Shown: positions 1,087 through 60,870 of the stretch, in pieces
Layout: the number at the start of each line of letters is the position of its first letter
How positions within the stretch are numbered: position 1 is the stretch's first letter
From: Cetorhinus maximus
Taxonomy: Eukaryota
Reading direction: 5' to 3'
Length of the DNA stretch: 64,000 nucleotides
NCBI RefSeq assembly: GCF_964194155.1
Contig: NC_135901.1
Location: forward strand, 2,852,001 to 2,916,000
Translations under genes and position numbers: made by a program
Notes under the pieces: model-generated
What the model was told of the DNA's origin: nothing
Databases searched by the model: none
Seen by the model: only the letters and a program-made list of their open reading frames with translations

Positions 1087-1350
1087 CCGAGTTGGCCCAC
1101 CAGCACTTCCTGAGGTTTGGGAGACAGTTTTATCTTTTAGTGAAAAGAGAAAATGGGAAAACTGGCTCCAGAGGGCTTGTCAGTGGAAAAAATACATCAG
1201 CGTCGGTTTGCTCCCTTGCCCTCGTTGACGATATGAAAGGTATTTACCATAAAAATATCTTTGATTGTAAATCCCAATGACCCCAAATTAAACCAATTCT
1301 GCAGTAATATTCCTGATCCAGCGAGTGCAGAAACCAGGAAAACTCAATGA

Positions 1351-1731
1351 ATGGAATTACAGCTTCTGGTTTTGATTTTAGGTGAGGACTTTGTGGAGAA
1401 TCGTGTTCGCCATTAGAACATGTTTCTTCTCTTTTGTATCAGCCAATATCGGTGGAAAGGCTGTGATCCACCAGTCACAGCGGATCTTTACACAAGAGGG
1501 ACAACGATTGAAATGCGGTAAAATGTAATCACCAGAGGCTCTGAGAGAATTCACTGGTACAGAATACGACAGAACCGTGGCCCGAAATTTATCATATCAG
1601 CTGTTAGCACATTCTTCAACCTATTAATTTACCCAACAAGAAGTTATAACATTCCGGGCAGGGCAGCACCGTGGGATCAAAAACTGGGGTGTGTTGGTCT
1701 GGGGTGTATTACTGTGCAGTTAGGCACTGAG
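1351..1731 (+). pseudogene. TCR alpha/delta-type V pseudogene
   Basis: Leader MELQLLVLIL 1351-1381 with GT donor and AG acceptor at 1442. The exon reads ..VIHQSQRIFTQEGQ.., then frameshift/stop, IHWYR..GPKFII, GVYYCAVR. Heptamer cactgag at 1725-1731, nonamer not recognisable. Confidence 0.75.
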
Positions 1732-5200: not shown

Positions 5201-5554
5201 TTCGGCCTTGCACCCTGCTTGGTGTAGGGGCAGAATAGCAGTTTCCCTAGTCTGTTCACATTAATGCCCAACATCTCTGGCACCAGTTTGATGTGTAACC
5301 TCCATAGGTTCTCCTAAATCTTCACATTCTTTCAGATTTGTCCCGCCCAGGATTTGATAGGAGACTGCAGTGAGGGTTCTACGCAGTTTACGTCGCATTC
5401 TCACATAAATATGAAGAATTAAAGAAAGACTATGATCAAGCAGCTCAAGTTTAAATTTCACAGAAACATTGCGTGAAATAAATGTCGTGATCTGGATTTC
5501 AATTAACCCTGAACACACTGAATTGTCGCTTTCTCAAACGAACTGAAAAGAATC

Positions 5555-5650
5555 CGCCAGCGGAGGGCGCCAAGCCCACTCATGGTCATGTCAAGGTCAC
5601 GTGATGCGCAGCGTCAAAGCCAATAGGAGTGGTAGCCAGAGTGAGGTCAC
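5555..5650 (+). promoter_or_regulatory. V-gene promoter: CTCF-like site, E-box, CCAAT, CRE/decamer-like AGTGAGGTCA
   Basis: ccagcggagggcgcc, cacgtg, gccaata and agtgaggtca lie upstream of ATG 5776. The same order is conserved upstream of the paralog at 9381-9475. Confidence 0.55.
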
Positions 5651-5775
5651 AATGGGCCTGGCCCCCTGCAGTGTGTGGGTGGAACAATGAGCTGAACAGA
5701 GCCCGGGTTCCGTCTCTCCTGCTCAATCTCTGACCCATTCTATCACCATTTACTGAGAGAGAGATTCAGTCAGAC

Positions 5776-6303
5776 ATGTTTCTGATAATACTGGCTGCGC
5801 TGTTCGACAGTAAGTGCTGAATTAATTTAATCAAGGCGGATTAGCAGATTAATGCAAATGTTCCTAATAACGTTTAATATAATTATCCATCATAAATTGC
5901 CATATTATTGACAGCTGTTATACGGAAGCTTCGACACGCTCACACAGAAACACATAAGGTTAGGCCACCTCTTCTTAACCTTTTGACACTTTGTTCCTCT
6001 CCCCTCACAGGTGGACTATGTGAGGACCCAGTAACTCAGGCCCCGGTGGCAATAACGATGTTAGAAGGTAGTTCGGTGCAGTTACACTGTGCATATACAG
6101 ATCGGAATATGGGCTACATGCAATGGTATCGGCAGCAGACGGCACAGCCACCAAGTTGGATTATTACCAATGCCTTAGCACTGAAGAAGAATAAAATCTC
6201 AGGACGATACCTGGCGGCTGCTGACCAGTCTGAAAAGAACGGTTACCTCAATATCAGCGAACTGAGTGTGGAGGACGGGGCGGTGTATTACTGTGCAGTG
6301 AGG
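5776..6303 (+). CDS. TRAV: TCR alpha/delta V gene segment, intact (leader 5776-5809, V exon 6011-6303)
   Basis: MFLIILAALFD|SGLCEDPVTQ..VQLHC..MQWYRQQ..SGRY..EDGAVYYCAVR. Phase-1 GT-AG intron, open frame, followed by a 23-RSS. Confidence 0.9.
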
Positions 6304-6342
6304 CACAGCGTCAGATCACAGCGAGAACCCCGTACAAAAACC
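6304..6342 (+). other. 23-bp-spacer recombination signal sequence
   Basis: cacagcg + 23 nt + acaaaaacc. Confidence 0.95.
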
Positions 6343-7394
6343 TCAGCGAGCATTTGCAGCTCCGATCAGCTTTCTTTTGTGCCTTGTCGGCGGGAAGTAT
6401 TTGATCCGAGTTCACAGCAGGCAAAAGCTGGTCTGTTTTTCGCACTGTTATATTACTGTCGTTGCCCCTGTCAAATCAACAGACGGGCAGCTTGGAAAAT
6501 CTTGGGGCTTATCACCATTCCGCCTTTTTTATGCTCAATATAAACCCGGAGTATTGATGTGCCCGCAGAGGTGATTAAAGCTCACAGATTCTAGTTGCTG
6601 TGGCTGAAAATTACCCGGAAAGAGATCCACATTGAGAATTCAAATTAGTTCTGACAAAGCGGTAAAGAAGAACAGCACAAGTGATTCAACCACCAGAGCG
6701 AGAGTCACCTGGCCCTTGTTAACGAGACAACAGAACAAAGCGCTCAACATAACTCACACCAGATGCATCAGCACAAATATATTACTTGACATTTTCAACT
6801 TCCGTTTCCAGTACAAATCAACTTCGCAAATTCATCAGTGGCGCCTGAGCTCATCTATTCTCCATCGATTCCCTTTGCATGCTTGATGGTCTCATCTTTT
6901 CCCTGGGCCCCACACTTTATCTACAATCCTATACATTCCCTCATTCTAGTCCTTGAAGTAACGATGCAAACCCTTTCTTTCTGAGCTGAATATCAGACAA
7001 GTGCTGTAAAAACAGAGCTTCTTTAAAGAGGAACTGCAGACAGAGGATTGAACACAGAGACAATTTCTCACACCCTGCCCACCACATCTGGTCATTCCTC
7101 AGAACAGGCAGCAGGGGGCAGCGGATATGAATGTTTCTTCTTTGGATCAGACCCTGGACGATAAGTAAAACGTTATTTCTCTGACAATTGTCTCTAAATT
7201 GAATTATCTCCGAATTATCTCAAATACATCGGACAACAATCATTACATGTACGGCTTTATTATATCTAACGCATTCCGTCCAATATTAGGCAATGGCAGC
7301 TGAGCATGAGGCAGCTGAACACTGGGTGTGGAAGATAGATAAAACAGTAAATGGTGTAAACAGAAGACACACACTGATGTCTGACATCACAGAA

Positions 7395-7625
7395 ATAAAG
7401 AATCACAGAATTATTACGGTGTAGAAAGATGCCATTTAGCCCATCGTGTCTTCACCGGTTCACTGAGCATTTTAACTTACTGCCAATCTCCTGCCTTTCC
7501 ATCATAACCCTGCACATTGTTTCTATTTAAATAATCATCCAATGCCCTCTTGAATGATTCGATTGAAGCTGCCTCCACCAAACTTCCAGGCAGTGAATTA
7601 CAAACCATAACTACTCGCTGTCTGA
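7395..7625 (-). mobile_element. CR1 LINE 3' fragment
   Basis: Resembles the CR1 3' ends at 28.1-29.1 kb. Confidence 0.5.
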
Positions 7626-8392
7626 ATATTTTTATTGCAAATCGCATCAACTGTGTCTTTGCTGAAGGTCAAAGTTAAAATGGAAAGTGATAAATTGACA
7701 CCGCCCTGCATTTGGTTTCTTTCCCTGAATCAAATCCTTGACTAATTTATGTTAAAGCTGCGAGGGAAGACCTTCATGCTCAGTTTTCACTCTCTTCCAG
7801 TTATCTAGACCCCACCCTATCCCTCGCCCTAGGTGGGTTTGAACCAGCTCCACGGGCAATGCTCCCAGGAGCTCTACACAGATGTATGATAAATCACCAA
7901 AAAGCGCCAATGCGTTTCTCCTTCAATTCAGTCCCATGCAGATTCAGGAAACTTACAGTTATGGGAGTTTGAACGTACAATTCCAGCGCGAGAGCTCACA
8001 AGATAGGATTTTAACAACGGGCTGCATTCATTCCTTAAGACAATCTTTCTACAGAATTTCAAATGGTTACAAAGACCCAGAGCCCAAGCTTGTCCCTTTA
8101 GAGAGTCAGTGCCGCAAAGTTATTGCGTTCCACTCACATCTCGCCACAAGGAAGGAAGGAAATTCCTGGCGTTTCGACAATTGACACGTTCTGATGGGAA
8201 CCGATGGAGAAACGACATCCTTACGCCACGAGAACAAAGTCTATTTCTAACCAATCCAAGAGCAGCAAAACCACGTGAATGGAACATTATCCCTGCCTGT
8301 CACATTAACCGACTATTGACTTCGCTCAGACGAACCGTGCTCTGCAGATGTGAGCTGTGCTTCCTTTTCTTACTGATACTTTAATTGCAGGA

Positions 8393-8826
8393 ATGCTTTA
8401 CGCGACACAACTGAATCTACTCCCTGTCATTCTAGTGCTACTAACTTGTAAGTATTGGCGATTTATTCAGTAACCTGTAGCGAGTGTCTATTTATACTCA
8501 CGCAGCTTCAATGTCTCATTGTCTAAATTTTTACAGGTCGATGTCGCCCGGAACAAGTGTCCCAGTTTCCCACTGCGAGAACAGTCCAGGGCGGGGATGT
8601 CGTGCAGATAAACTGCAGCTATGACATGTCGAGCATTTACGGAATGTATTGGTACAAACAGCAGCCCGGTCAGGGGCTGGAGTGGATAATGAAGAGAATA
8701 ACGGCTGGCAAAGATAGAAAGGGCCGATTCGAATTGGAACTTTCCACTGAGGACAAACGGGGCCAATTGGTTATTGAGAAGACGGAGAGCGCGGATACCG
8801 CTGTGTATTACTGTGCGATAGAGCAC
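8393..8826 (+). CDS. TRAV: TCR alpha/delta V gene segment, intact (leader 8393-8447, V exon 8537-8826)
   Basis: MLYATQLNLLPVILVLLT|CRCRPEQVSQ..VQINCSYDMSSIYGMYWYKQQPGQGLEWI..GRF..DTAVYYCAIEH. Phase-1 intron, open frame. Confidence 0.88.
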
Positions 8827-8865
8827 CACACTGAGAGGAAAGGCGGCAGTCACTGTACAAAAACC
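8827..8865 (+). other. 23-bp-spacer RSS
   Basis: cacactg + 23 nt + acaaaaacc. Confidence 0.92.
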
Positions 8866-9595
8866 TCCCTCCTGTTTACAGTCCCGGAACAGCTGCAACG
8901 ATCTCTCCAATAACACAGGGCAGGCCAGACGGTTCAGAACGAGAGCAGCAAACGGAGGCTGCCGCTAGCTTTATCAAACCCTTCAAATAGCGGCTTTGAT
9001 CAGAGATTGTGACAGTCACAGCATAAAATATCTGATAGGAGAAATAGTCATTCATTGAGAGCAGTCTTCGTTGTGAAAACATCTTCAGCATTGATTAATT
9101 GTAGGATTATAATCAGTTGAGTCGATTCAGACATTTTACTGAACATGTCTACATGTGAATCTGCTGTGTGACGGCTGACCGAAGGTTTTGGACAGAGAAC
9201 TTCAGCGATGATTCCTACAGATTTAACATCACGCTCCGACATAAACATCAGCAGCAACGATGATTGTTTCTAATCAGCTCCAATTTTGGCTTCTAGGGAA
9301 CATTGGTGTCTTGATGTGCATTTCAATAAACCCTGAATCCAATCAACGGCCGCATCCGAACACGGATTGAACCGTAATCACCAGCGACGGGCGCCAAGTT
9401 CAAGCATGGGAGTCACTGCGTCACGTGGTGGAAAGGCCAAAGCCAATAGGGATGGTTTCCTGAGTGAGGTCACAATGGACTTGGCCCCTGCAGTGTGTGG
9501 GTGGAGCAATGAGCTGAACAGAGCCCGGGTACCCTCTCTCCTTCTCAATCTCTGGCTCATTCCTTTCACATTCTCTGAGAGAGATTCACTCAGAC

Positions 9596-10126
9596 ATGTT
9601 TCTGATAATAGTGGCGGCGCTGTTGGACAGTAAACACTGGATTAAATTCATCAAGGCAGATTAGATTAATCTGCGGTTAAGAGGTTGCGACAATATTTAA
9701 AACAATTAACGATCAGAAATATCCATATGATGGACAGCTAGGTAGATAGGAGGTTCCACAAACTCACACAGCTACAAACAAATTTTGATCAACACTGCTT
9801 AACCGCTTGATATTTCAATTCTCTTCCTCACAGGCAGGCTATGCGCAGATCCAGTAACTCAGTTCCCGGTGGCAATAATGGTGGCAGAAGGGGGTTTGGT
9901 GCATTTAGACTGTGAGTATACAGATCGGAATATGTACTGCATGCAATGGTACCGGCAGCAAACTGCACAGCCACCAAGATGGATTATTACCAATACCGTA
10001 GTACTGAAGGAAGATGAAATTTCAGGACGATATCTGGCGACTGCTGACCAGTCTCAAAAGAACGGTTGCCTCAATATAGGTGAACTGAGTGTGGAGGACG
10101 GGCCGGTGTATTACTGTGCAATGAGG
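9596..10126 (+). CDS. TRAV: TCR alpha/delta V gene segment, open frame (leader 9596-9629, V exon 9834-10126); paralog of the V at 5776
   Basis: MFLIIVAALLD|SRLCADPVTQ..LDCEYTDRNMYCMQWYRQQ..NGCLNI..EDGPVYYCAMR. Flanks at about 9290-10410 are similar to about 5480-6620. Confidence 0.87.
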
Positions 10127-10165
10127 CACAGCGTTAGATCGCAGCTAGAATCCAGTACAAAAACC
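10127..10165 (+). other. 23-bp-spacer RSS
   Basis: cacagcg + 23 nt + acaaaaacc. Confidence 0.95.
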
Positions 10166-10554
10166 TCAGCGGTTTTTGCTCCCGGGTTCCAGGGAAGGAA
10201 AACAGACAGGTCTACGCACCGCAGTTTTATTGCCCTGTTTGTCCTTGAACAAATCCACAGAGAAGCAGTTTTGGGAAATATGTAAACTTAACTCCATGCC
10301 GCCATTTATAGGGTTAATAGCTCCGAGCTTATCCGGAATATCGATTTGCCAACAGAGGTAATGAAATCTCTCAGAACTGCAGTTCCTCTAGCTGATAATT
10401 ATGGGCTGTTCTTACAGAACCGTTCACTCAGGTGGACCAAGGGTGGATAGGCGGATGAGTGGATTGATGAGTTTATTCTACCTATTTCCACAATCACTTT
10501 ATTTAATTTCCCTTGTATATATCATTATGTTAATTTTCTTCTTATTTTGAAAGC

Positions 10555-10872
10555 TACTCGCTCCCACTGAGAAAAAAAATCAGATATTGGTTTATCGGGA
10601 ACGCAAGGGAAATAATTTTGCTTCACCATAACTCTACTTTCGCTGTAAATGAACTTATATTCTTGTACCGGCAATTCTGCAATCGAGCTCCGCAGCATCC
10701 CGGCTCCATATTCAGTGACGAAAGAGTTAAGGGAAGATTTAAAGTATCTGTGGACGGTGAGAAAGGCTCTGCCACTCTCACCGTTCACTCAGTTAAGTTC
10801 TCAGATGCTGCGGTTTAGTACAGTGCGGTGAAACACGGGAAGGCAAGGAGGCGAGGAGACTGTGCTAGAACT
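10555..10872 (+). pseudogene. TCR V pseudogene
   Basis: ..FLYRQFCNRAPQH..VKGRFKVSVDGEKGSATLTVHSVKFSDAAV*YSAVK has lost the core Cys/Trp residues and carries a stop in YYC. Degenerate RSS: cacggga 10834-10840 + 23 nt + gctagaact. Confidence 0.75.
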
Positions 10873-13700: not shown

Positions 13701-15475
13701 GCACACCGACGTCCACGAGACTCCCTCCACACCCCGCCTACGCCACAGTGGGTCAGCCCTACACTTTATACCGAATGTTGAAAACCTGAACAATATTCCG
13801 GTGACGGTGAGTGGAACCCCCTCCTTCCGCCACCGCCTCCATCATCACCGTCGTACATTGGCTCAGTGCCTGTCTGGCCTCAACGGTTAAATACCTGAGA
13901 GATTTACCTGTGAAGATCAGCTCCCCATGCCGTCTGCTCTCACTCGTTAAAGATTTGAAACATTGAGCTGTGACAGGCGAATAGATTAGCTCTGTGTCTG
14001 TCTGTATGCTTTAAGACACCTGCACAATGCGGAATATTAAGTTGAGGCTAAGAACGATGGGTGATGCAGAGGGAGTTTGATAAAATTGAGGCTCAGTATG
14101 GTGCCTATGGAGAGAAGCACTAACAGAGGGGCATAGGTGAAGGTGGGATTGAAAACATTGAGTGGCAGAGACACATAAACAGAGAGAGATGCAGTATGCA
14201 GAGGTGAGGACAGTTAGTGGTGCAAAGAGAGGACAGCAGAATGATATTGATGCGGATATGTGTTGATAAATATAAATGCACAGAAAGTGAACAGCTGATA
14301 ATTATTGTTCTCCCTTCTGCCCCTTGGTGCAGTGAACTGCGGTGAAGGAGTCATCACTGCTCTGTGTAATACAAATGGACAAGAGAGACTAAAACTGACT
14401 GAAGTTCTGGGACACACAGATAGTCTATAGACTCCTCAGTGACACCAGGAGACATGAGAATTGGTGAAACCTGGAGATTTTAATCAGGAAAATGGGAATG
14501 ACGCTGGAGGAAACAATGGGAAACAAAGGCAAAAATTAACAAACAGCAATGTAGATGGAAGTTTATTCTTCCATGTTCTGTACTGTTCAGGCCGTGGTAG
14601 GGCAGAGCTCAACTCTTTCTTAGAACTTGACATGAGACAGTAACAGCCCATAATATGAGAGAGACTCGCCAAGATTCCCTAGTCGCTGTGCGCTCATTCT
14701 GCCTTTGGGGTTTGACAGAAAGGGGCAAAGGTAAAGGTCTCTTTATTGTGATGTGACAATGGATGACGCAATGGTTCCTTCACCAAGGGGCCTTGAGTTT
14801 AAACTCAAACCAGCCAGGACTGCCGAAGAAACCCTGTCAGGGAAAGGGGGAAAATCCATGCTATTGCAGCGGTGTGGAGGAGCCTTGGAGAAAATAATTT
14901 ATCAAAGTCCAAATTAGTTCTTCGTCATTCAACATTTGTTAGCAATTTCACAGAGAATATTTTACAGTATTTTTCTAATAATTGACAGAAAGTGTTTATG
15001 ACAACTGGGCATCACCTTGAGAAAATAAGCACATGGGAGCAGAGAACAGCGGGGTTCAACATAGAGAGAAGGGAGCAATTGAGAATAGAACAAGGGACAC
15101 TTTACTCTTGGACTACTGGAATATTCAACCAACGATGAAAATCTAAGATACATTTCTATTACAGCCACAACCATCTCACAAACTTCAAACAGAAAGACCA
15201 AATCGCGTTTTTCGGTTTCCTCTGTTTAACTGAAGACATTTTACTTTGAGGATCGTCAAGAGGACATATTTCATTTTCATTTTCATACCATAGTGATCTT
15301 GATAAACGGATGTGGAAAATGCATGGCGTTGGCCATTCAACGGGCCATCTGATAAAGGGATGAAGCAAAGTTTATGGCCTGGGTAATTTATCTCGGGGTT
15401 ACTGTCCTCGAAACATTTGGGGATTTTTCCAACCGCTTCAGCCAGCCTGAAATGTGAGTAGACTGAACTTCTCAC

Positions 15476-15602
15476 TTTCACCAGAGTGACGGCAGCATTG
15501 TGGGAAATGATGAAGAGGAACGGGGTGATGAATTTAGAAGCGGTTGTCTATATGTTGCCAGCCTCTTCCTCATTGCTTTAATCCAGGTGTGGTCTGGGAA
15601 AT
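15476..15602 (-). pseudogene. Orphan, decayed IgH transmembrane exon (TM1), with TM2/3'UTR relic extending to about 14870
   Basis: DFPDHTWIK-(frameshift)-NEEEAGNI*TTASKFITPFLFIISHNAAVTLVK with AG/GT ends. It is 127 nt versus 128 nt for TM1 at 44355-44482, and the flanking intron and UTR also align by eye with 43.7-44.6 kb. Confidence 0.85.
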
Positions 15603-16827
15603 CTACGAGAATGTGGGGGAGAAAATCTAATCAGATGGTTTATTAATTCAGAGCACGATATTATTATTGTAGATTCTCTTCTTTCCTCCTAAAGGCACAT
15701 GTTTCTTCTCTACTTTACTTTTCAATCTGCATCTTGCGGCATGTTGATCACTCAGCAATATCTCTCTCTGTTTCTATCTCCACTGCCACTTTTCCTGAAT
15801 GATCTTCAAAGTCATATTGGAAGATTAAATTCTGATACTAATCACTGGGCAAGGCGAGTGAGTGAAAGTTTTGGGAGATTGGGAAAGGGATACTAAACTG
15901 TGGAGGAAAATGCACCCTGAGATCTGACTACTGAAGCCATTTACCGTACGGAGGCTGGATATGGGTTATCAAGAAGCCAACGACAATTCAAAGCCTCTTT
16001 ATATTGTTTCTTGTTCTGTACCACATCTTTCTCTAATCTGAATGAGATTTGTAAGGCCAGTATTTTATGCACTGCTAGCCTTAAGCTCTTGTCAGTGTAT
16101 ATTATCCCTGCAACTCGCCCTGGGGGCGTTGATCCTGCTTCCCGCACTCTATTAAACAGAGGAGTGTGAACAGCTACAGAGAATCGATGTGGCACAATCT
16201 CCTTTCTGTCTCTTTTCAAATCCAAGGTCCTAAGATGATGGGTGTTTCAATATATCCAGACTGTCACAAAGAAGGACAGAGCTAACCACATAGTTATAAA
16301 CACATGTTTTAAATGCAAACCTCAGACGGGTCGGCTCTCGAAACATTGTTTAAATTAGAGGGAGAGTTGTTTCTCTAGGTTAGTTCAACTGTTTGTTCAA
16401 TAACAACAAATATCTCGTTCTAATATCACGGATCTATAAATCACTGAGACAAAATACAGAATCACTCTTAGCTCTATAGTTAACTGACGCTTGATAGAAA
16501 TCTCACTGGAGTTACTGTTCCCACTCTCATGACAGTCAGACCAATTTTGTGTTTCCCGGTTACAATAAACACCCAAGGTTTTTTCTTTCCCCACCCCGGT
16601 CTCTAAAGCTGAGTCATTCCCTCTATCAAGACAATGACTGCCGTCCAGCTCGGGATGTGTCCATTCAGTTAGAGGCAGCTCACCACCTGTCGCTCTCACA
16701 ACAGCACTGAGAACAGAAGGAAGTGAGGTGAGAACATCCGGAGACACGGCAGCAGGTTATTGAGGGCGGGGTTTAGAACGGGTGGCTTCAAATATCCAAT
16801 TTCCCTTGTACAGAGCGGATAGTGACA

Positions 16828-17276
16828 ATGCATCTGGGTTGTGTGGGGAGCATTTTTCACAGGTAATTGTGGGCTAAACTCATTTCATCATCTCTCGAAC
16901 TTCTCGCACACGTTTTGAATTTTAAACAGCCGCTGGTCTGACCTTTCATTGTTTGAAAATGTTTTTCAGATCTGAGTCACGGAGATCCTGTCACTCAACC
17001 GCTGTCCTCAGATGTTAAGACAGAAGGAGAAGCGGTGACTTTAAGCTGTACCTATGATACTAGACAGAACAGCTATAATTTATTCTGGTACCGACAACAC
17101 CCAGACTCGCAGCCCGAGTTTATATTGAGGAAGAATTCAGCCGGTTATGAAGATAAAGCAGATTACGCCAAAAGCCGTTTCTCTGTAGAGCTCCAGACCT
17201 CGAATAAATTCACCAGTTTAACCATCTCGGGTCTGCGGCTGACTGACGCTGCCGTGTATTACTGCGCTCTCAGACT
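16828..17276 (+). pseudogene. TRDV: TCR delta/alpha-type V: intact V exon (16970-17276), frameshifted leader (16828-16862)
   Basis: V exon DLSHGDPVTQ..VTLSCTYDTRQNSYNLFWYRQHPDSQPEFIL..SRFSVELQ..DAAVYYCALR is open. The leader is 35 nt (phase 2) where phase 1 is required. Confidence 0.8.
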
Positions 17277-17315
17277 CACAGTGATGGAGAGCAGTATGAC
17301 CCCTGTACAAAAACT
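17277..17315 (+). other. 23-bp-spacer RSS (consensus heptamer)
   Basis: cacagtg + 23 nt + acaaaaact. Confidence 0.95.
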
Positions 17316-18204
17316 GTCGCTAGATTGTGGATTGGAGCTCCTGTCGGCTGGGGTTTGTATCGAACCTGGGGCAGATGCAACCACAATGTTCAGCGGCGCT
17401 GTCAAGCTCTCAAACACAAACCGAGCGTAAACCAAATTAACCTCGATTCAAACCGTCACAAAACTGTTTCCAGGAGCCGCCGACAAAACAAGCTGCAGAA
17501 TCCAATTGGACCGATTCAGCACAATATCATGTTTGTTGACACCAATTCTAATCCTCAATAATCTGTTGCTCTGTCTCAGGAAGCTCCCCAGTTCATTTCC
17601 CAGAGGCGGTGCTGAGCTGGGTGTTAGTGAATGGAAACACCCCGAGCTGAGATACAGTATTGAAAGGGGAGTCGTTGCTCTTTTAGAGGCCAGGCCTGGG
17701 TAGGGAATTAAATCCTTGTTTGCTAATTATCGCCAGCGAGCTCCGGGTTGTTGGTGGAGAGAGAAAATATTCCAACATTAAGGAGACATCCTGAAGCAGG
17801 GTACAATGGAGGACTCTGCGTTTTGGGCTTATGAACATCTGTCCATTGTTCATGAGCTGTCCCTGATCCAGTAGCACACTCTGACCAGGCCGAGGTCAAA
17901 GGCTGTGGGAAGGTTACAGGGGAGATGGGGACAGAGCTGCTCAATATCACAGGCAGGGACAGAAAGAGCCCAAAGGACAAAAATATGTTCATGCTCCGCA
18001 AAAAAACTTATGCAGATCATTTTTAGTATAAATGCGAGCTGAAACCAACTAATTTAACTCCCAATTCCCCTCGTTTGTTCTTGTTAAGTGTTTTGTTTCA
18101 TGACCTTTTCGGAAGGTCCCGGCGAATCTGTGGTTAAATTATCGCTTCCGATTAGCAGCGTGAGAGCGCCCACTGGTGGCCACCAACTGGGACTGCCAGT
18201 GTGA

Positions 18205-18522
18205 GTTTTTCGGCTTTGTCCGCTACATCTCTGCAGTCGTGTGGGCTCCATGACACACGAACAAACGGCGGTGTCGGAGAGACAAGGAGACCAGCGACAT
18301 TTAAATGGACCGTTTCGTTTCCTTTGTGCAAACCAGCAGAGAATCCGTCTGGAAAATCTGGAGACTTACCTCCCGTGTCTGAGCTATATCTGCTCAGTAA
18401 ATATCTCGGAGATTCCCCGGGATTGAGGATGTGGTACAATAGAGTTGGACAGTTTATGTTATCAAGTAGCTACAGCCCAGTGTTGTGTTTTGTCCTTGGA
18501 GAGCAGTTAATTCAGACTAACC
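18205..18522 (-). pseudogene. Inverted TCR V pseudogene with degenerate RSS
   Basis: Acceptor tttcag, then TTLGCSY..PGESPRYLLSRYSSDTGGKSPDFPDGFSAGLHKGNETVHLNVAGL..SDTAVCSCVME with stops and frameshifts. RSS remnant cacacga..gaaaaact. Confidence 0.75.
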
Positions 18523-19384
18523 CTGAAAGAATTGATCCACAGCACTAGTTCCGAAAATGTAAATGCAGAATGTTTCAAAAATCAGAGTAATCATGATCCG
18601 TGGAAAACACACCGACTATTTAAATACAGGCTAAACGAACAGGAAGATTATTTTTATCAATAATGAACATAGAGTGTCTGCTTTAGAGTAATAGAAAATA
18701 GCAGAGTTCCAATTATGAACTATGGAGTTGAAATAGCGATGGTTAAACTTTCACAAGTCGATGACCATCCTGTTCTGCTCACCGTTCAAGTGACTGAGGA
18801 CAAATAAAGTGGCAGGGACATGATAATACTTGAATCTTGGAATCATAGAGCACGGAATGGGGCCATTCGGCCTATCATGCCAGTGCCTCTTTGAAGGAGC
18901 TATTCGGTTCGTCTTTCGACTCCTGCATTTCCACATCATTCGGATTTTCCCCATTTCCAGTTTCACACCTTCCTTTTAAAAGTTACGATTTAATCTTTGC
19001 TTCCACCGTTTTGGGCAGTGTATTCCAGATTTTAAAAAATCGCCGGGTCATAAATGAAGTGAACCTTTCCCTATGTTTTTCTCTCTTACTCCGGGTGATT
19101 GGATTTTCCAATTTTCTTCTTGTGGTACTGGCTGCTTCTGATGCATTCTATCAAACCATTGATAATTTTGAGCAACTCAACTAAGTATTTCCTCTAAATT
19201 CTTTGAAATCAAGTGAACAAACCCAGTTTCTCCCGTCTGCTCACATAAAAGCCCCTCATCCCTCTCTCGGGTTTACAAATAGTCATTTGCTAGTACAGAA
19301 CTTGAGCATTTGTGAAAAAAGAGACATGTCGAAGTATTTCGTCTTGCACTCATCGGGACAGTTTTGCAAGACATCTACGGCAGG

Positions 19385-43190: not shown

Positions 43191-43516
43191 TGAAAGAGTA
43201 AAGAGATAAAAAAACGTTTACTCTCTCTCTCTAACCCCTGCTACACCGACACTGGGAGTGTTTGATGGGACAGTGTAAAGGAAACATTCGTCCTCCATAT
43301 ACTGTCCTGTATGGGCCTCTGATGAAGCAGATCCCTGCTGTTTACAATTACCTGACATGTAACTGTGACAGGCCTGAGTATGAGTGAAATCACCGAGGCT
43401 CCCCTCGCTGTGCAATCATCCTGGCTCTGGGGTTTGCCATAAAAAGGTAGAGGTAAAGGTGTATTAACACCGATGGGTCGCTGGATGGCGCAGTGACTCT
43501 TTCACTGAAGGACCTT

Positions 43517-43618
43517 GGGCTCTGAAGAAGAGTCATGAGGAATCGAAACGTTAACTCTTTTTTTTCTCCACAGATGCTGTTGGGCCTGCTGAGTTTTTCC
43601 AGCATTTTCTGTTTTTGA
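43517..43618 (+). mobile_element. Penelope pLTR-derived short element with hammerhead-like core
   Basis: ctgaaga..gaaacgttaact..ccacagatgctg..ctgctgagtttttccagcatttt. Confidence 0.6.
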
Positions 43619-44207
43619 TTCACATCCCAAACAGGAATGGTTAAAAAAAATCTGGGAAAGGTGAGGAAACAGTGTAATAGGGGAAATGGAGCGGTGTCGA
43701 TGGGCCTGGGGGAAAGGAGTTCAGCAAAGTCAGTTCGTTTCACATTCATGATTTATTAACAATTTCGGAGAACATTTTACAGAAAAGTTTATTTTAAAGT
43801 CAACTGGACTGAATATGATGACTGAGTCACACTGAGAACAGAACACATTCGCTCTGAGCTGCCAACTGTATGTACAGCTGTAACAGAGACCAGAAAGAGA
43901 AAACAGGAGCTCAACATAAAGGGAAGGGAATAATTGTGAATGAGGAATGAGAAAAGCTACTTATTTACACATGGAATTTAAACTACTGGGGAATTATAAG
44001 CTACAATTACAACACAGCCATAATTATCTCGCACATTTCAAACAGAGAAGCGGAAATACCGTCCATGACTGTCTTAGTTACAAATTCGGAAACATGAACT
44101 GAAGGTATTTCATTTTTAGATTCACCGAGAGGACATATTTTAAATTCGTAATACAGAGATCTCAGTAAATGGCTGAGGAAAATCTACGGTGTCCAAACTT
44201 CAACTGG

Positions 44208-44216
44208 TCACTTGAT
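44208..44216 (-). CDS. IGHM: IgM TM2 exon (Ile-Lys-stop)
   Basis: ctcttttgcag|ATC AAG TGA. Confidence 0.8.
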   Translation of the reverse strand: MK

Positions 44217-44354
44217 CTGCAAAAGAGGATAAAATAATGAAGCAGATGTTTAGAATGTGGGACATTTATGTTAGTGTTTTAATCAATGAAACATTGAGAG
44301 ATTTTTCAAACCGCTTCTGTCAGTTTGAAGTGTGAGTGGATTGAATCTTCTGAC

Positions 44355-44482
44355 CTTCACCAGAGTGACGGCAGTGCTGTAGAAAATGCTCAGGAAGAAC
44401 AGGATGATGAATGTGGAAGCAGTTGTCCAGATGTTGCCGTTATCATCCTCAGAGTCTTCAATCCAGGTGCGATCTGTGGAAT
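44355..44482 (-). CDS. IGHM: IgM TM1 exon, intact
   Basis: [43 protein letters not shown] carries the conserved antigen-receptor TM motif and AG/GT boundaries. Confidence 0.93.
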
Positions 44483-45049
44483 CTGCGAGGATATAACCGA
44501 GGAAATATAATTAGGTTGTTTATTAATCTTGGATATCTTTTAAAAAATATACTCTTTACTCGTTCCTAAGTTATTAATGTATTCTCTAATTTAATGTTCA
44601 ATATATATCTACTGTTAAGCTCGTGAATTTCAGCAACCTAACTCTGTAACTATCTCCACAGCTGTTCTTCCTTTGCAATCCTCGTATAGTCCGAGACGGA
44701 AAATATAGAAAATTATCTCCAATATCAGTTTATTTTCGAACAATTTCGTACGATCTATTATTGGAGAATATTATTATGGATATCGAGAGAGATTCACTGA
44801 GCAACTTATTTGGAAACTGTGAACGTTGCTTTTTAAAATCTCGGATGTGAGTTCCCATCTTGGTTGTCTATTTGTGATGGGAATGTTTGGTGCATCATTA
44901 ACTTAAATCAGATTCTCAGTAAGAACATTGTTTCAGTGTGCTTTTCGGATCATTATGTAATAGGGACAATTGCCGGAGAATACATCGGTTAAAAAAGTGC
45001 ATTTGAATTATACCTTCTTCAATAGCCTGGCGTTTGTGTCTTGCTTTAG

Positions 45050-47600: not shown

Positions 47601-48049
47601 ACGGGGAATTGTTGAGACATGTTTCTGTGTGACCTTCACTTCAATTCCCAGTGGGTGCGATGCAGCAACTTAAAGCTGATATCCATTTTAAAGGAATGGA
47701 CAATAAGAGAAGCAGCAACACCGAGATCTAAATGTGCTGAGTTTGTTTGCTGGAAATAGGAAATTGTTAGATTTCCCCTCAGTGGGAGGAGAGTTGGTGA
47801 TGTTATTTTGCAGAATCCCGTGATGAATGAGCTTTACTCTGTCTCTAACCCAGGGTGTATCTGAGCTGGGAGCACTGGGTGTACAAGACTTGGTTCTGAG
47901 CCCTGGAAATATCCGATTTTAACTAAACAGCTCTAACATTAGCAAAAGTGGAAAACAACATTAATTAAGCGATTGTGCATTTAAATCACAATTGGAGAAA
48001 AGGACTTTATTTTTTTATTATTGAAGTTTGAAACGTAACGGAGAGATTC

Positions 48050-48441
48050 TCATTGACATGAATTAACGGTGTCCATCAGTGCAAGGGAAATATTCACAAA
48101 ACTCGGTTTACCGCTGGATTTATCAACCGTTCTGTTGATGATCTTCAAGGGGATCGCTTCATGTCCCACCACACAGGAGTAAGAAGCGCCGCTGGCTCAC
48201 TCCTCCGCTGCAATGGATAACAGGCTGTACATGAAGAAGGAGCGATTGCCGTTCTCCGCCACCACCTCGGTGTTCTTGTAGTTCCCGGGATCCACCGGCT
48301 TGTCATTGACGGTCCACTTGACGAAAATCGCTCGCGGGGAGAAACCTCTCACTAAGCAGCTGAGGGAGACGAATCTCTGAGCGGAGACATCTTCTGCCGA
48401 GGGTAGGAGGACAGACACGGACGGTTCCCGCAGGTCTTTAT
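48050..48441 (-). pseudogene. IGHM: IgM Cmu4 exon + secretory tailpiece, with nonsense codon
   Basis: [98 protein letters not shown] replaces the conserved Trp at 48197-48199. The internal donor is at 48111 and AATAAA at about 48006-48019. Confidence 0.93.
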
Positions 48442-48579
48442 CTGCAGAAAATGTACAATAAATGTCAATAAACTGATTACTTTCGTAGACAATGAAACCG
48501 CTGGTTAGGTGTGAGAGAAACGTGTTTTGTGATGAAAATTAAGGGTTTTCATTATCCACTTATTGGAAATATTTCACCG

Positions 48580-48770
48580 ATCCTTCACTATAGCTGAATC
48601 AAAATCCTGGAACTCCCTCCCTAACAGCACTGTGGATGTATCTACACCACATGGACTGCAGCTGTTCAAGAAGGCAGCTCACCACCACCTTGTCAAGGGC
48701 AATTAGGGATGGGCAATAAACTCTGGCCCAGCCAGCGACGCCCACATCCCATTAATTAATAAATAAAATA
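48580..48770 (+). mobile_element. LINE 3' end in the Cmu3-Cmu4 intron
   Basis: tggaactccctccctaacagcactgtg..gggcaattagggatgggcaataaa. Confidence 0.7.
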
Positions 48771-49157
48771 CTTTGGGATCTGTCCGGTTTTCCAGCTCGG
48801 AGCACAGGTGGACACAATCCTTTTCCCTGAGAACTTATGGGGTTGGACGAGAAAGTTTCTCAAAGTTTACAGCACATAAACAGGCCATTCTGCCCAACTG
48901 GTCTATGTTGGTGTTTCAGCTTCGCACCAGGCTCCTCCCATCTTGCTTCATCTAAACCCAATGGCACAGCCTTCAATTCATTGTTCATTCATCTACTTAT
49001 CAATTTCCCCCTGAAAGTCCACAGGTCCAGAGCGTTTAGTTGGCGAAATTGCTGATCAGAGTAGACCATGAATACACTGAATAGTAAATATTGATCCTTA
49101 CACTGACACTGGAAATAGACACATTGAACCACTTATTGCTTCAATTTCACCACTCAC

Positions 49158-49466
49158 CTTGTTCCTTGTGGATGGAATTTCTTAAAGGAGTCGGCAGATC
49201 CTGATTGCTCACCACGCAGTAGAACTCAGCCCCACTCAGCCAGGCTTGTTTCGAGATGTTTACGTTGCTGACCACGCTGTCGGGATCCGCTCCCGGTTGC
49301 ACGGCGATCTCTGATTTCAAAGGCTTCTTCTCTTGGGTCCAGGACACGAGGACTCCATAAGGAGCATTAGAAACGATGCAGGTTAAGGTCACGGTCGCCT
49401 CCAGTAAGACCTGTTCTATTGGCGGTGGCAGTAGAGTAATTGTGGCATCTCTGCAGTTGGAACATT
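49158..49466 (-). CDS. IGHM: IgM Cmu3 exon, open
   Basis: [70 protein letters not shown]. 309 nt, phase 1-1. Confidence 0.92.
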
Positions 49467-49828
49467 CTGTGAGACAGAAATGAAAATCAACCAAAGTTTC
49501 ACCTTGAGAATCAGGACAGCAGCATTCAGTCTTCACTCTCCAAAGGAGAATAAACGACCTTCGACATATCAACCTCTAACTATCGTCTGTAATGGTCTTT
49601 ACACAATGCAAAACCAGCTTGGTCTGTGTAAATTGTTCTCATAATTTCAGTCGTTCAGCCCGGGAAACATTCTAGTGAATCTGCGTTGCCCCAGTCCCAA
49701 GACAAGTATACCATTCCTGGGCCCTGGAATGCAGTACTGAACGTCGCTTTATGAATAGGGTGGACACACTTTCCAGCACTTTATTCCGAAGCTGTTACCA
49801 GTTACTGTAATGGGTTTATATCTCTTAC

Positions 49829-50116
49829 CAGACGCGGTGGTGTTTTGACTTTGGGTGACCCCTTGATGAGTGACCTGACAGGTATAGACCGCGCCGGTGA
49901 ACAATTCCCCAGCGGAGACTTTCAGCCGACTGGTCGCCGAGAAGTTCCCGTTCATTTCAAAGGCGGGAGAGGTGACAATTCCTGAATTCATGGGTTGTCC
50001 ATTCTTCAGCCACTTCACGGTGATTGAATTTGGACTGAAATCGATGATTGAACAGACGACGGTATCTTCCCGGCAACTCACGGTGAGGAGAACAGTTGGA
50101 GGGTGGATATCAGGAC
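49829..50116 (-). CDS. IGHM: IgM Cmu2 exon, open but apparently shortened
   Basis: [66 protein letters not shown]. 288 nt, with an A-B segment shorter than in typical C1 domains and a Trp-to-Leu change before the F strand. Confidence 0.88.
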
Positions 50117-50329
50117 CTTCAAAAAACACAGGTTAAACATTTCTTGCAGAAGAAATTGATAACAGATACAATGAGATCGTATATTTTAACAGGCTTTTTC
50201 CGTTAATACACACTAAACTGGGTTTTCCAGGGATCAGAACTATGCAGAGCACTATAAATGCGTTATAATCAAGGCCCTATACAGGTCAATCACAGCCTTT
50301 ATGTTTCTCACAGGTTCCCCAACACTTAC

Positions 50330-50627
50330 ATGTCATTCCAATGCTCTTGTCTGAGCCGCTGTGTTGAACCTCAGTTGATTTTGCTGCATTCTCCCTCTGA
50401 CTCGGTGATGGTTAACTGGCTGCTAAGGGTGAAGGTTCCCTTCTGGTTTCTCACTGACGGATAAGTCTTAAATCCAGTGGTGATCGGCTGCCCATCTTTC
50501 TTCCAGGTCAGTTTGGTGATTTCTGGGGAGTAGTCCATCGCCAAACAGCCGTAGGTGACGGAGCCGTCGGTGTTGAGTTGCTGACAGGAGGAGACCAGGC
50601 TGTAGAGAATGGGCGAAGACGGTGTCA
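50330..50627 (-). pseudogene. IGHM: IgM Cmu1 exon with 2-bp deletion
   Basis: [41 protein letters not shown]. The exon is 298 nt with a stop at 50371-50373 where the second domain Cys should be, and EVQHSGSDKSIGM continues in a shifted frame. Confidence 0.92.
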
Positions 50628-51184
50628 CTGGGAAAGAATGGCCGATTGAACAAGTTAGACTCTGTGATTTGTGATCATTAAGCAACCAAACAATATAGTC
50701 AAAATTTGACTATAACTATAAACATATCCAAATATATTCCCACTAAAACCCACACCCACATTTGTTCATTTATTATTTCCATCCTTTGGTGATCCTCATC
50801 TGTCGGTTCCCGCTTTAGAAACCCACACCTCTTTTTCCGCTTCTATCCCATTACTAAAAGAGAACATTCTAATGTCATCTGAATGACGTACCTTCATTGG
50901 ATTAAAATGGAAGAGCAGAGGATTTTCCCCATTATTTCGCCACCATTTATTTCTCAAACAACAGCACTTGGTGATAGAGAAATTGTCTCGTCATTTATAT
51001 CATTGAAGCTTTGGAAATTGGCTCTGTTCAAATTGAGTGAAGACCCCTTCCCTATCCACGTCCCCCAAAACAAAGAATAGCAACAGCCCTTCGAAAGTAC
51101 CTTTGTAATGGTACCTTTATAATGACCAGTGAACTCTAAATTGAATGCCAGTTACAGTAATTACGACATTTTCCAATCGTGTGT

Positions 51185-52270
51185 ACATGTGAACATGCGG
51201 ATCAGTAGCAGGAGTAGGCCATTCGGCCTCTGAGGCCTCCCCCAATGTGGGGAACTGTGTTCCCTATCGTTAGTCTCTCCCACAAGGGGAAACGTACTTT
51301 CAGCATCCATTCCCCTCAGGATCTTGTATGTTTCAATAAAATCAGCTCTCATTCTTCTAAACTCCAATGGATACAGGCCCAGCCTATCGAAACTTTCCTC
51401 ATGAGATAACCGACAACACCTCCCAGTACCATTGGAACATTCTCTGAACAGCTTCTAATGCTTTTATATCCTTTCATAAAGAAGAACAAATCTGTACACA
51501 GTAATTCAGACAAGGTCTCATCAACGCCCTGTTAAACTGCAGCAAAACATCCTTATTTGTATATTCTATTCCCCTTGTAATAAATGACAACACTCCATTT
51601 GCCTTCCTCATCACTTGCTGTTCCTGCGTTATAACGTTTTGTGATTCATGCACGAAGGGATCCACATCCCCCTGTACCTCAGGGTTCTGCAATCTCTCTC
51701 TTTTTCAATAATATGCTGTTTTTGTATTCTTCCTGCCAAAGTGGACAAGTTTATATTTTCCCACATTATACGGCATCTTCATTTGTTTGCTCACTTACTT
51801 AACCAATCGATATCCCTTTGTTGACCCTTTATCCCCTCTTCACCACTTACGTTTGTATCTTTCTTTGTGTTATCAGCAAATTTAGCAAATTAATTCAGTC
51901 CTTTCGTTAAGTCATTGATATAAATTGTAAATAGTTGAGGCTGCAGCATTGATCCCTGTGGCACTCCACTTGTCACATCTTGCCAATCTAAAATAACCAA
52001 TTTATCCCTACTCTCTGTTTCCTGTTTGCTAACCAAACTTCTACCCGTGCTGAAATGTTACTGCCGACACCATTATTTTGTGTAGTAACCTTTGATCTGT
52101 CACTTTGTCAAATGCCTTCTGGCAGCGCAAGTACAGCACATCCTCAGGTTCTTCTTTATTCATGTTCCTTGTTGCTTCCTCGAAGGGCCTCAAATAAATC
52201 AGCCAAACATGATTTCCCTTTCACAAAACCATGATGGATCCACATATTTGCAATTGGATTTTCTAAGTGA
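51185..52270 (-). mobile_element. Decayed CR1 LINE ORF2 3' half in the JH-Cmu1 intron
   Basis: HGFVKGKSCL.., KANGVLSFITRGIEY.. and MEFRRMRADFIETYKILRG fragments. Confidence 0.8.
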
Positions 52271-52559
52271 CCCGTGATAGACTCGATAAAAATAGATTCC
52301 AGCATTTTCACTCTTTCAGCAGTAAAAGTGGGAGACAAACAGGTTGCGATTGGAGGGGCAGTGAACACCCGCTGGAGAAAGGCGCAGGGAGTCGGGGGGG
52401 AAGCGCACAGAGACATTGTCTCCCTTCTATCCCAGGCACTTGACACCTTTCCCCGGGAATGGAAAGGATTTCAGGAGGAGGAGAGACAATGAGGGAGAGA
52501 GAGAGAGAGAGAGTTAGAGAGAGTGGAGCCCAGGGTGCCTGGGGCCTCATCTCGCAACT

Positions 52560-53920
52560 GCTTTCACCCGGCTCTCCCCACTATAGCCCGGCTCTCTGCG
52601 CTTTCGCGTGCCTCTCCGCCCTTCCCCCACCGCCTCTCTGCCCTTTCCCCCACTGGCTCCCTGCCCCTTCTCCTTCCCGCCTCTCAGCCCTTTCCCCCTC
52701 CCGCCTCTTTGCCATTACTACCCCCCTTTTCTGCCCTCCCCCTCCCCCCCAGCTCTCTGCACAGGTTTGTGTGCTTTCGCCCGGCTCTCCCCGCTATAGC
52801 CCGGCTCTCTGTCCTTCCCCCGCCCTCCGCCTCTCTGCCCATTCCCGCCACCCCTCTGCCCTTTACCCTCCATCCTCTCTGCCCTTTCCCCCATCCCCTC
52901 TGCCCATTCACCCCACCCCTCTGCCCTTCCCCCCCGCCTCTCTGCCCTTTCCCCCCCACCGCTCTGCCCTTTACCCTCCATCCTCTCTGCCCTTTCCCCC
53001 CTCCCCTCTGCCCATTCACCCCACCCTCTGCCCTTTCCCCCTCCCCTCTGCCCATTCCCCCCCTCCCCTCTGCCCTTCCCCCACGCCTCTCTGCCCTATG
53101 CCCCCGCTTCTCTGCCATTTCTCCCCCAGCTCTCTGCACTTAATCCAAGGTTCGCTGCCCTTTCCCCCGGCTCTCTGACCTTTCCCCCATCTCTCTCCCC
53201 TTTCCATCACCTCTTTCTCCTTCCCCCCACGCCTCTTTGCCTGTCCCACCCCTCGCTTCACTGCCCTTTCCCCCCCTCCTCTCTGCCCTTTCCCCACCTC
53301 CTCTCTGCTCTTTCTCCCCCCACCTCTCTGCTCTTTCCCTGCCGCCTCGCTGCCCTTTCCCCCTCCCGCCTCTCTGCCCTTTCCGCCTACCGCCTCTCTG
53401 CCCTGTCACCCTCCCGCCTCTCTGCCCTGTCACCCTCTCGCCTCTCTGCCCTTTCCCCCTCCGCCTCTCTGCCCATTCCCCCTCCCGCCTCTCTGCCCAT
53501 TCCCCCTCCCGCCTCTCTGCCCTTTCCCCCTCCCGCCTCTCTGCCCATTCCCCCTCCCGCCTCTCTGCCCTTTCCCCCTCCCGCCTCTCTGCCCATTCCC
53601 CCTCCCGCCTCTCTGCCCATTCCCCCTCCCGCCTCTCTGCCCATTCCCCCTCCCGCCTCTCTGCCCTTTCCCCCCCGCCCCTCTGCCCTTTCCCTCCCAC
53701 CTCTCTGCCCTTTCCCTCCCGCCTCTCTACCCTTTCTCCCACGCGTCTCTGCACTTAACTGCACGGATCTCTGCCCGTTCACCGGTTCGCTGACCTTTGC
53801 CTCATCTCTATGCACTTTCTGCTGGATCGCTGCCCCTTTCCCCGACTCTCTACCCTTCCCCCCCACCTCCCTGCCCTTTCCCCCAGGCTCTTTGCGCTTT
53901 GGCCCCGCCTCTCTGCCCTT
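52560..53920 (-). repeat. Purine/G-rich tandem repeat tract on the IgH sense strand (~24-bp unit GGGCAGAGAGGCGGGAGGGGGAAT)
   Basis: The plus strand is almost pure C/T, with near-perfect units at 53455-53670. Confidence 0.9.
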
Positions 53921-54049
53921 TCCACCGACGCTCGTCGCTCCCTTGGGCCATGCTCCACTTTCCGGAACTGCTAGGTCTCAGGCCTCGCTTTCAGGTCTCT
54001 CTTCCCCGCAGTTCCCGCTCTCCCACACACCGATTTAGGAAAAGTGATC

Positions 54050-54712
54050 GAGTGAGTGAGCGTGTGCATGATTGACAAAGTGAGGGTGGCTGAGTGACAG
54101 AGCGAGGGCGGGTGGCTGAGTGAGTGAGGGTGAGTGGGTGTGTGAGGGTGGGGAGGATGAGTTACTGATTGTGAGTGCAGGTCGGTGTGTAAGGATGGGT
54201 GGATGAGTGAATTTGAGTGAGGATGAGTGAGGGTAGGTGAATGAGCGTGAATGAGGCTGGGTGTGTGAGTGTGGGTGAGTGAGGGTGGGTGAGTGAGTGA
54301 GGGTGAGTGAGTGTGAATGAGGCTGGGTAGGTAAGGGTGACTGAGGATAAGTGAGTGTGAGTGAGGGAGGGTGAGTGAGGGAGGGTGAGTGAGGGTGGGT
54401 GAGTGAGGGAGGGTGGGTGAGTGAGTGTGAATGAGGCTGGGTAGGTAAGGGTGAGTGAGGGTGAGTGAGAATGAGTGAGTGAGGGTGAGTGAGTAATTGA
54501 TGGTGAGTGAATGAGGGTGAGTGAGTGAAGGTGGGTGAGTGAGGGTGAGTGAGCGAGGGTGGGTGAGGGAGGGAGTGAGGGCGAGTGAGTGAGAGATTGT
54601 GCGTGATTGTGGGCAGTGAGGGTGAGTGAGTGAGTGAGTGAGGGTGAGTGATTGTGGGCAGTGAGGGTGAGTGAGTGAGTGAGTGAGGGTGAGTGATTGT
54701 GGGTAGTGAGGA
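54050..54712. repeat. (GAGT/GAGG)n low-complexity tract
   Basis: Direct reading. Confidence 0.85.
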
Positions 54713-60468: not shown

Positions 60469-60516
60469 CTGCAGTCACCGTCACCATGGTCCCTTGTCCC
60501 CAGTAGCCCATGATGT
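60469..60516 (-). CDS. IGHJ: IgH JH segment
   Basis: IMGYWGQGTMVTVTA followed by a gtaag donor. RSS: heptamer 60517-60523, 23 nt, nonamer-like 60547-60555. Confidence 0.95.
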
Positions 60517-60870
60517 CACAGTGTTACATTCCATGGGCTGTGCCATACAATAAGTGTCCCTGCACGAAAAAGACAGAAATCCACCATTATTTTAAATGTT
60601 GATAACTCAGAGGCAAAGGAAGATCACGATGAATCTTCACTAAATTATATTTGCGTTGTAGATATCTTTAGCTATTCATCAATGGCCCTCATGTTTTACA
60701 TTTCACAGAGTAACACATGAACATGTTATTGAAATCACCAACTGATGAATGGATAATTATCACAGCTTTTCCATCTTAAACCATGTTTTTTGGGCAGTGC
60801 TGGACATAAAAAAATACTTCACTGTAAATATAGTTGGATTGTAAAAGCGAGCACTCAATTAGTGCTGAGG

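Follow-up and report, generated by a model that had tools for sequence, protein, structure and literature searches.

A decayed TM-end relic, most likely of IgM, among TCR V genes in an antigen-receptor tract of Cetorhinus maximus

We analyzed a 64-kb stretch of DNA (here, the window) that originates from an antigen-receptor tract of the shark Cetorhinus maximus. Between its TCR V genes lies a decayed block (here, the relic), which is probably a nonfunctional fossil of an IgM 3' end that arose by genomic duplication, died near its birth, and was later recopied passively. It is apparently an uncatalogued case of a TM-only IgM fossil in a tract already known to mix IgM and TCR V genes; a literature search for a TM-only IgH fossil, in which few subscription journals were covered, found nothing.

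A collinear copy of an IgM TM block

The relic (positions 14,547 to 15,796, minus strand) is a collinear copy, 64 to 68% identical, of the TM1-intron-TM2-3'UTR-3' flank region of an IgM cluster in the same window. BLASTn aligned 14,865-15,796 with 43,687-44,672 (63.9% identity, E = 4e-87) and 14,547-14,795 with 43,271-43,517 (67.6% identity, E = 3e-28), both on the same strand and collinear, and six sub-segments of the relic each reached a z of 12 to 21 against 100 shuffles (best shuffle, z of 3.2 or less). These values bear out the initial annotation, which had aligned a decayed TM1, an intron, a TM2 remnant, and a 3'UTR with the 44-kb region on the minus strand. The limits given there, 14,870 to 15,720, enclose a real block, but the block is larger: the upstream intron accounts for about 190 bp and the 3' flank for about 400 bp (Table 1).

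Homology to the 44-kb copy ends at the limits of the relic. The sequences past the two relic ends gave z values of -0.2 and 0.3 against that copy. No homology was found past the 5' end (24 of 200 shuffles scored equally high), and the sole match past the 3' end, a 48-bp stretch within repeat-rich DNA, was rejected as lying off the relic's diagonal. Because introns and 3' flank are kept, the relic is a DNA-level copy; the two intron segments and the 3' flank exclude a processed (retro) pseudogene. A scar of germline RAG recombination was also rejected, as a lenient RSS scan of 14,300-14,700 and 15,600-16,600 revealed no heptamer- or nonamer-like site at the breakpoints.

Table 1. Antigen receptor features of the window and parts of the relic
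Feature	Position	Strand	Basis or remarks
Decayed TCR V	1,347-1,731	+	Sequence comparison/profile search
Three TCR V genes, each with a 23-RSS and an open V exon (at 6.0, 8.5, and 9.8 kb)	5,776-10,165	+	RSS scan, comparison
Decayed TCR V, closest V left of the relic	10,648-10,836	+	V profile, 16.5 bits, E = 4e-4
Relic: genomic 3' flank past the polyA signals	14,547-14,932	-	69-72% identity, z 12-21
Relic: 3'UTR remnant	14,933-15,336	-	70% identity, K2P 0.40
Relic: TM2 remnant, stop codon lost, chance AG inside	15,337-15,353	-	Alignment
Relic: TM1-TM2 intron, 14 nt shorter than that of the 44-kb copy	15,354-15,475	-	73% identity, K2P 0.35
Relic: decayed IgM-type TM1 exon	15,476-15,602	-	Alignment, profile
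Relic: 3'-terminal remnant of the CH4-TM1 intron	15,603-15,796	-	68% identity, K2P 0.42, z 12
TCR alpha/delta V facing the relic head-to-head, 23-RSS present	16,828-17,315	+	Matches, RSS
Probable decayed TCR V, degenerate RSS	18,200-18,530	-	11.1 bits versus 8.7 for reversed control
Paralogous TM block of the IgM cluster	43,271-44,672	-	TM1 at 44,355-44,482 intact, TM2 from 44,216
Remainder of the younger IgM pseudo-cluster	48,005-62,232	-	Exon comparison
CH4 and secretory tail	from 48,441	-	Trp-to-stop near 48,197
CH3	from 49,466	-	
CH2	from 50,116	-	7-residue gap
CH1	from 50,627	-	Frameshift near 50,375
JH	60.5 kb	-	
D segments	61.3 kb and 60.9 kb	-	
Leader/VH	61.7-62.2 kb	-	

In layout, the relic follows the TM exons of shark IgM (horn shark P23088 and the predicted IgMs of bamboo shark and catshark), in which a phase-1 TM1 of 42 codons with an acidic spacer and a hydrophobic core is followed by a short intron, a tiny TM2, and a 3'UTR. 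The relic TM1 likewise has a phase-1 acceptor and about 42 codons; it shares 77% DNA identity with TM1 of the IgM cluster and is matched by the C-mu profile with 25 bits (E = 3e-7). Its AG acceptor (15,603-15,604) and its GT donor (15,474-15,475) are intact. Unlike the shark IgM TM exons, however, the relic has a frameshift and a stop, lacks an upstream CH4, and has lost the TM2 acceptor and the polyA signals. The frameshift and the Trp-to-stop change of the initial annotation are both present, the former as a 1-nt deletion near 15,576 (127 nt, versus 128 nt in the 44-kb copy) and the latter as a TGG-to-TAG change at 15,548-15,550. The polypyrimidine tract and the acceptor of the TM1-TM2 intron are gone (14 nt missing near 15,353), and a polyA scan showed that both AATAAA signals of the 44-kb copy are mutated. 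The conserved Tyr-Ser pair known from solved IgM receptor chains of human and mouse is His-Asn in the relic. We also weighed a working alternative TM2 that would use the remnant's chance AG, but discarded it, as nothing of the TM core is left in working order. Judged from its sequence, the relic is unable to encode a membrane anchor; it has neither the open TM1 nor the TM2 acceptor nor the polyA signal of a functional IgH minicluster.

The paralog of the relic belongs to one IgM minicluster on the minus strand, which runs from 62.2 to 43.3 kb in the order VH-D-D-JH-CH1-4-secretory tail-TM1-TM2. Its domains share 61 to 94% identity with five shark IgMs from the databases, including P23088 of horn shark (the P23088 cluster contains a named mu chain), and its TM1 is 87% identical to the IgM TMs of bamboo shark and catshark. 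To judge by its exons, this cluster is a young pseudogene in the C region, with a CH1 frameshift, a CH2 gap, and a CH4 stop, and with TM1 intact.

TCR V segments flank the relic on both sides, as initially annotated. The left neighbor is the decayed V at 10.65-10.84 kb rather than the V at 9.8 kb; in the profile search that identified it, the best score on reversed sequence was 8.7 bits. On the right side, the V at 16.8 kb had been named as the next gene. A V is indeed present there (16.8-17.3 kb), but it lies on the opposite (plus) strand and its leader (16,828-16,862) has no in-frame ATG: the sole ATG is out of frame, and two in-frame stops lie upstream. This V shows 63 to 76% identity to shark and ray TCR alpha/delta-type Vs and is probably a pseudogene, although its V exon and RSS appear intact. 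For the probable minus-strand V at 18.2-18.5 kb, Pfam and pairwise searches returned no support.

Isotype and missing upstream exons

The initial annotation had regarded the isotype as unassignable by eye. IgM is now much the most likely isotype of the relic, given the noncoding homology, the spacer, and the TM tree. The intron, UTR, and 3' flank of the relic are 68 to 73% identical to those of a proven IgM cluster. Its spacer agrees with that of horn shark IgM in 8 of 13 positions and with those of other shark IgMs in 6 or 7 of 17, with five matches to skate and two to chimaera. In a tree of 21 TM sequences, which contained no IgW or IgNAR, the relic groups with elasmobranch IgM (bootstrap, 91). 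The sampling reflects the databases, in which queries for the TM proteins of shark IgW and IgNAR yielded, for cartilaginous fish, IgM alone; a search of the supplement of PMC8692893 likewise gave no such sequence.

It is very unlikely that the relic derives instead from an IgW or IgNAR cluster, or from UrIg2. Such an origin could be entertained, as the isotype comparison covers IgM TMs only, a diverged second copy of the relic (see below) fails to align over the extracellular spacer, and all three isotypes are described as linked in the complex in the available part of PMC12227049. The alignable introns, UTR, and 3' flank, the horn shark-like spacer, and the position in the tree all argue against it, as does published gene order: in white shark and stingray, IgM is interleaved with TCR Vs, and IgW and IgNAR occupy separate blocks (PMC12227049, Table S1). 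As for UrIg2, its TM is only 50% identical to IgM TM according to the portion of the same paper that covers it.

No remnant of CH or VH exons was detected by BLASTn, tBLASTn, or profile search in the 1- to 43-kb interval, where the V, D, J, and CH exons of a functional IgH minicluster would lie upstream on the same strand. The C-mu profile recognized TM1 as its sole match across this interval, with the next-best score at 3.4 bits. The earlier remark that no C exons lie upstream of the relic therefore holds. In a detection test with simulated exons (CH1-4, VH, and JH) decayed by 30%, CH1-4 and VH were recovered in 10 of 10 cases each and JH in 4 of 10; thus, a trace of JH or D could be missed. 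Between the end of homology and V-linked sequence there are at most about 770 bp, whereas TM1 and CH4 are 3.6 kb apart in the intact layout. Near this boundary, 15,985-16,145 weakly matches sequence upstream of the V at 8.5 kb (score of 19, against at most 18 in 200 shuffles; BLAST E = 0.05; out of a set of five comparisons), which hints that V-linked flank may reach close to the relic; this match is not relied on.

Decay, age, and later copies

The relic is not a recent duplicate, because its noncoding K2P distance to the 44-kb copy is 0.35 to 0.42 and because an old repeat is inserted in the 44-kb copy only. For comparison, the noncoding distance between the V units at 6.0 and 9.8 kb is 0.23; taken across exon, intron, UTR, and flank, the distance of the relic to the 44-kb copy ranges from 0.28 to 0.42. 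The inserted repeat is a multicopy element at about 43,518-43,633, 70 to 85% like its relatives and absent from the relic, whose 3' flank is collinear across the insertion.

Across the 25 codons of the TM core, the relic shows 11 nonsynonymous differences in 56 sites (dN, 0.23, or 0.20 if one difference is assigned to the other branch; 95% range, 0.09 to 0.47). Core residues unseen in 11 database chondrichthyan IgM TMs number 7 of 25 in the relic and 0 of 25 in the 44-kb TM1 (P = 0.01). Likewise, among residues invariant in five shark IgMs, 6 of 16 are changed in the relic versus 7 of 208 in the 44-62 kb cluster, with six misaligned columns at the CH4 edge dropped (Fisher P = 6e-5). The latter difference supports the proposal that the relic is older as a pseudogene than the cluster. 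Because dN amounts to about half of the neutral distance between the relic and the 44-kb copy, the relic seems to have lost constraint near its split from the 44-kb lineage. Both a stillborn partial duplicate and a whole cluster that died early predict the observed dN, and a long-serving cluster would fit the decay less well. As the range of dN is wide, however, the relic could have been functional for as much as about half of its history.

Part of the 14.4-17.4 kb region is contained in 20 of 24 listed runs, which carry three species labels; X1 may come from the source of the window itself, so that two of the labels denote other species. No RNA run was among those listed, which has no bearing on expression. 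Four runs (X1, X5, X9, and X13) were aligned to 12.4-18.9 kb at 80% likeness, with short contigs only, each covering less than the whole interval. X5, X9, and X13, chosen from sixteen small-share runs, represent organisms B and C; paralog-like pieces of X1 with a depth under 5 were left out. Depth over the relic is 91 to 696, similar to that of unique flanks, compared with about 10^6 over a repeat at 13.05-13.7 kb. A 25-base TM1 pattern had no match in the metagenome contigs.

These data, together with the K2P values above, contradict both readings under which the initial annotation was to be abandoned, namely, that the block is a dispersed repeat or that it is a recent small duplication of the 44-kb region. 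The window is repeat rich (for 52% of 18.8-43.3 kb, it contains a second copy), which would be in keeping with a repeat. Nevertheless, the relic has only one paralog in the window, that at 44 kb, and its depth is low; for a recent duplicate, the noncoding divergence is too great, and the old repeat interrupts only the 44-kb copy. The chance that either reading is correct is close to negligible.

In organism C (run X9), there is a 93% copy of the relic with 51 differences in 725 bases, and a contig of X13 spans 15,576-16,084 and crosses the end of IgM homology. Three flanking pieces of the same run have 93 differences in 1,441 bases, so that the relic (7.0%) shows no conservation beyond that of its flanks (6.5%; P = 0.65). 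Retention by co-option, for example as a regulatory element or as an alternative 3' end for nearby TCR V genes, is extremely unlikely. Its presence in runs of three species labels, its intact TM1 acceptor and donor, and a probable minus-strand V 2.6 kb upstream might suggest such a role; yet it diverges at the rate of its flanks, its polyA signals are lost, its TM1 is frameshifted and stopped, and an Rfam search of 10-20 kb gave no match.

A second copy, about 12% different from the relic (here, the 88% copy), was found in X9 and X13, with the same joint in X5. It continues beyond the limit of IgM homology, as far as 15,909. Among the listed contigs, none spans the relic and a V together. The 88% copy has only 8 gap letters over 15,226-15,545, and the 93% copy has 4 or 5, too few for an extra 14 nt; hence, both lack the TM2 acceptor. 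The 88% copy does not align over 15,546-15,661, where the frameshift and the stop lie, and the lesion seen to be shared is the loss of the acceptor. If decay had begun only with the duplication that produced the 88% copy, about 3.8 core changes would be expected, versus 10 or more (P = 0.006). Since the 88% copy is without the same acceptor, the later copies probably reflect passive duplication of dead DNA rather than new invasions. We infer that the relic, already dead, was recopied together with its flank.

The decay of the relic amounts to about 0.2 substitutions per site, versus about 0.04 per lineage since the species split. IgM DNA would have been present among TCR alpha/delta Vs for several times longer than the time since the split from the other sampled species.

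Origin and relation to known antigen receptor tracts

In elasmobranchs, the setting of the relic is familiar. TCR-type V exons lie between IgH clusters in four species, in a region described as undergoing rapid expansion and contraction (Flajnik et al. 2025, PMC12227049, as far as its available text goes). For other elasmobranchs, Table S1 of that paper already records IgM clusters, whether intact, pseudo-, or partial, that are interleaved with TCR alpha/delta Vs. The white shark sheet (8.2-17.1 Mb, 40 rows) lists 9 C-bearing IgM entries, of which 3 are marked "pseudo?" and 2 "missing V," along with 2 VH rows and 29 TCR/NARTCR rows. Like the window, this elasmobranch antigen-receptor complex (AgRC) has IgM clusters, some of them pseudo, "missing V," or "C only," that alternate with TCR alpha/delta and NARTCR V segments in mixed orientation. 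It differs in that Table S1 is built from NCBI gene models, and its four sheets have no TM-only fragment; the relic is too decayed for a gene model.

Against this background, the relic would be the product of a genomic (not retro-) duplication within the interleaved tract of IgM and TCR alpha/delta Vs, perhaps by unequal crossover or a similar duplication-deletion event between related genes in repeat-rich DNA. Constraint would have been lost at about the time of the split from the 44-kb lineage, the block being either a stillborn partial duplicate or the stump of an early-dead cluster that was stripped of everything 5' of the CH4-TM1 intron. Later, one or more rounds of copying would have carried it along as a dead passenger, and it would now drift neutrally, doing nothing, as a by-product of birth-and-death turnover in the tract.

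The initial annotation had proposed that at least two IgH clusters of different ages occupied the array, pointing to recurrent invasion. That a whole second cluster stood here, or that it invaded, does not follow from the data, since a dN of about half the neutral distance fits a partial duplicate that was dead on arrival as well as a cluster that died soon after duplication. There are several points in favor of a complete cluster that entered the array independently, functioned for long, and eroded to its TM end: (i) the two IgM-derived blocks have clearly different decay ages and share one strand, with 28 kb between them; (ii) the lower bound of dN (0.09) allows a functional period; and (iii) shark IgM genes exist as whole miniclusters, as described in the accessible part of PMC5192425. 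However, the point estimate of decay accounts for the whole branch, CH and VH traces are missing despite their recovery in every simulation, and the space before V-linked sequence is short relative to an intact TM1-CH4 interval. Moreover, the available portion of PMC12227049 interprets the genes as primordially linked and as having expanded and contracted in situ, so that no invasion is needed. We consider repeated invasion unlikely, although it keeps some weight.

Another explanation, which we judge to be quite improbable, is that an IgM cluster was severed in the CH4-TM1 intron by an inversion or another rearrangement, which stranded the TM block here and left the V-D-D-J-CH1-4-secretory half, without TM exons, elsewhere in the tract. 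The break does fall in the right intron, partial IgM entries ("C only" and "missing V") occur in related genomes (PMC12227049), and local inversions are suggested by the probable minus-strand V at 18.2-18.5 kb and by a 61% inverted copy at 17,529-17,728. On the other hand, the window contains no TM-less IgM partner cluster, and the relic ends without an RSS-like site. If this explanation were true, a partner cluster able to make only the secreted form would be expected at another site in the tract. The fossil, common to several sharks and duplicated along with TCR V units, would then date the interleaving of IgM and TCR V and indicate that the two families are copied as one mixed unit.

The relic has partial counterparts among known systems. 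IgH-derived Vs of TCR delta (TAILV; trans-rearrangements with IgM or IgW V) are IgH DNA in TCR alpha/delta territory too, as described in the parts of PMC12227049 and PMC5931798 that were available; TAILV-type segments, however, are usable Vs with RSS, whereas the relic is a nonrearranging 3' end that makes no contribution to the repertoire. The nurse shark IgM pseudogene groups G6-G8 and G2C (Malecek et al. 2008, PMC2435157, available in part) similarly show clusters dying in family turnover, but they were found through VH segments, and the relic keeps its TM end only. We also drew on the accessible parts of PMC4279169, PMC6795676, PMC3964593, PMC4034164, and PMC8692893. The relic represents a layer overlooked by gene-model surveys and has no function of its own; the published picture is unchanged. 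As a neutral, low-copy marker common to several sharks, it could help to date duplications in the tract and to distinguish an entry of IgH clusters into the TCR V array from a mixture that existed from the start.

Some further structures of the window were noted. The V units at 6.0 and 9.8 kb (5,483-6,348 and 9,307-10,171) are a tandem duplicate pair with 79 to 80% identity. The inverted 61% copy mentioned above reproduces 16,564-16,795, the region just upstream of the 17-kb V, and sits just downstream of it; this V therefore has old inverted repeats on both sides. The layout may be old, as the horn shark gene model P0050 reads through a similar downstream flank. The 24-kb stretch at 18.8-43.3 kb is without V or C segments and has many LINE-like fragments; from translations, we take its elements to be LINE and Penelope types. 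A frame at 25.1-25.7 kb had no match in a Pfam search, and a 1-kb repeat family has five copies at 22-39 kb.

In the 44-62 kb cluster, the rearranging part (leader, VH, the two D segments and their RSS, and JH) appears intact, and the VH might for this reason still serve in rearrangement, including that of TCR delta; the JH-side RSS was not picked up in the RSS scan. The 44-kb TM2 (44,208-44,216, minus strand) reads Ile-Lys-stop and gives a KIK tail, where database shark IgMs mostly have KVK. The cluster is lengthened by tandem-repeat expansions in the CH4-TM1 intron (45.2-47.6 kb; about 20 copies of a 52-bp unit) and in the JH-CH1 intron (52.5-56.4 kb; 24-bp and short units).
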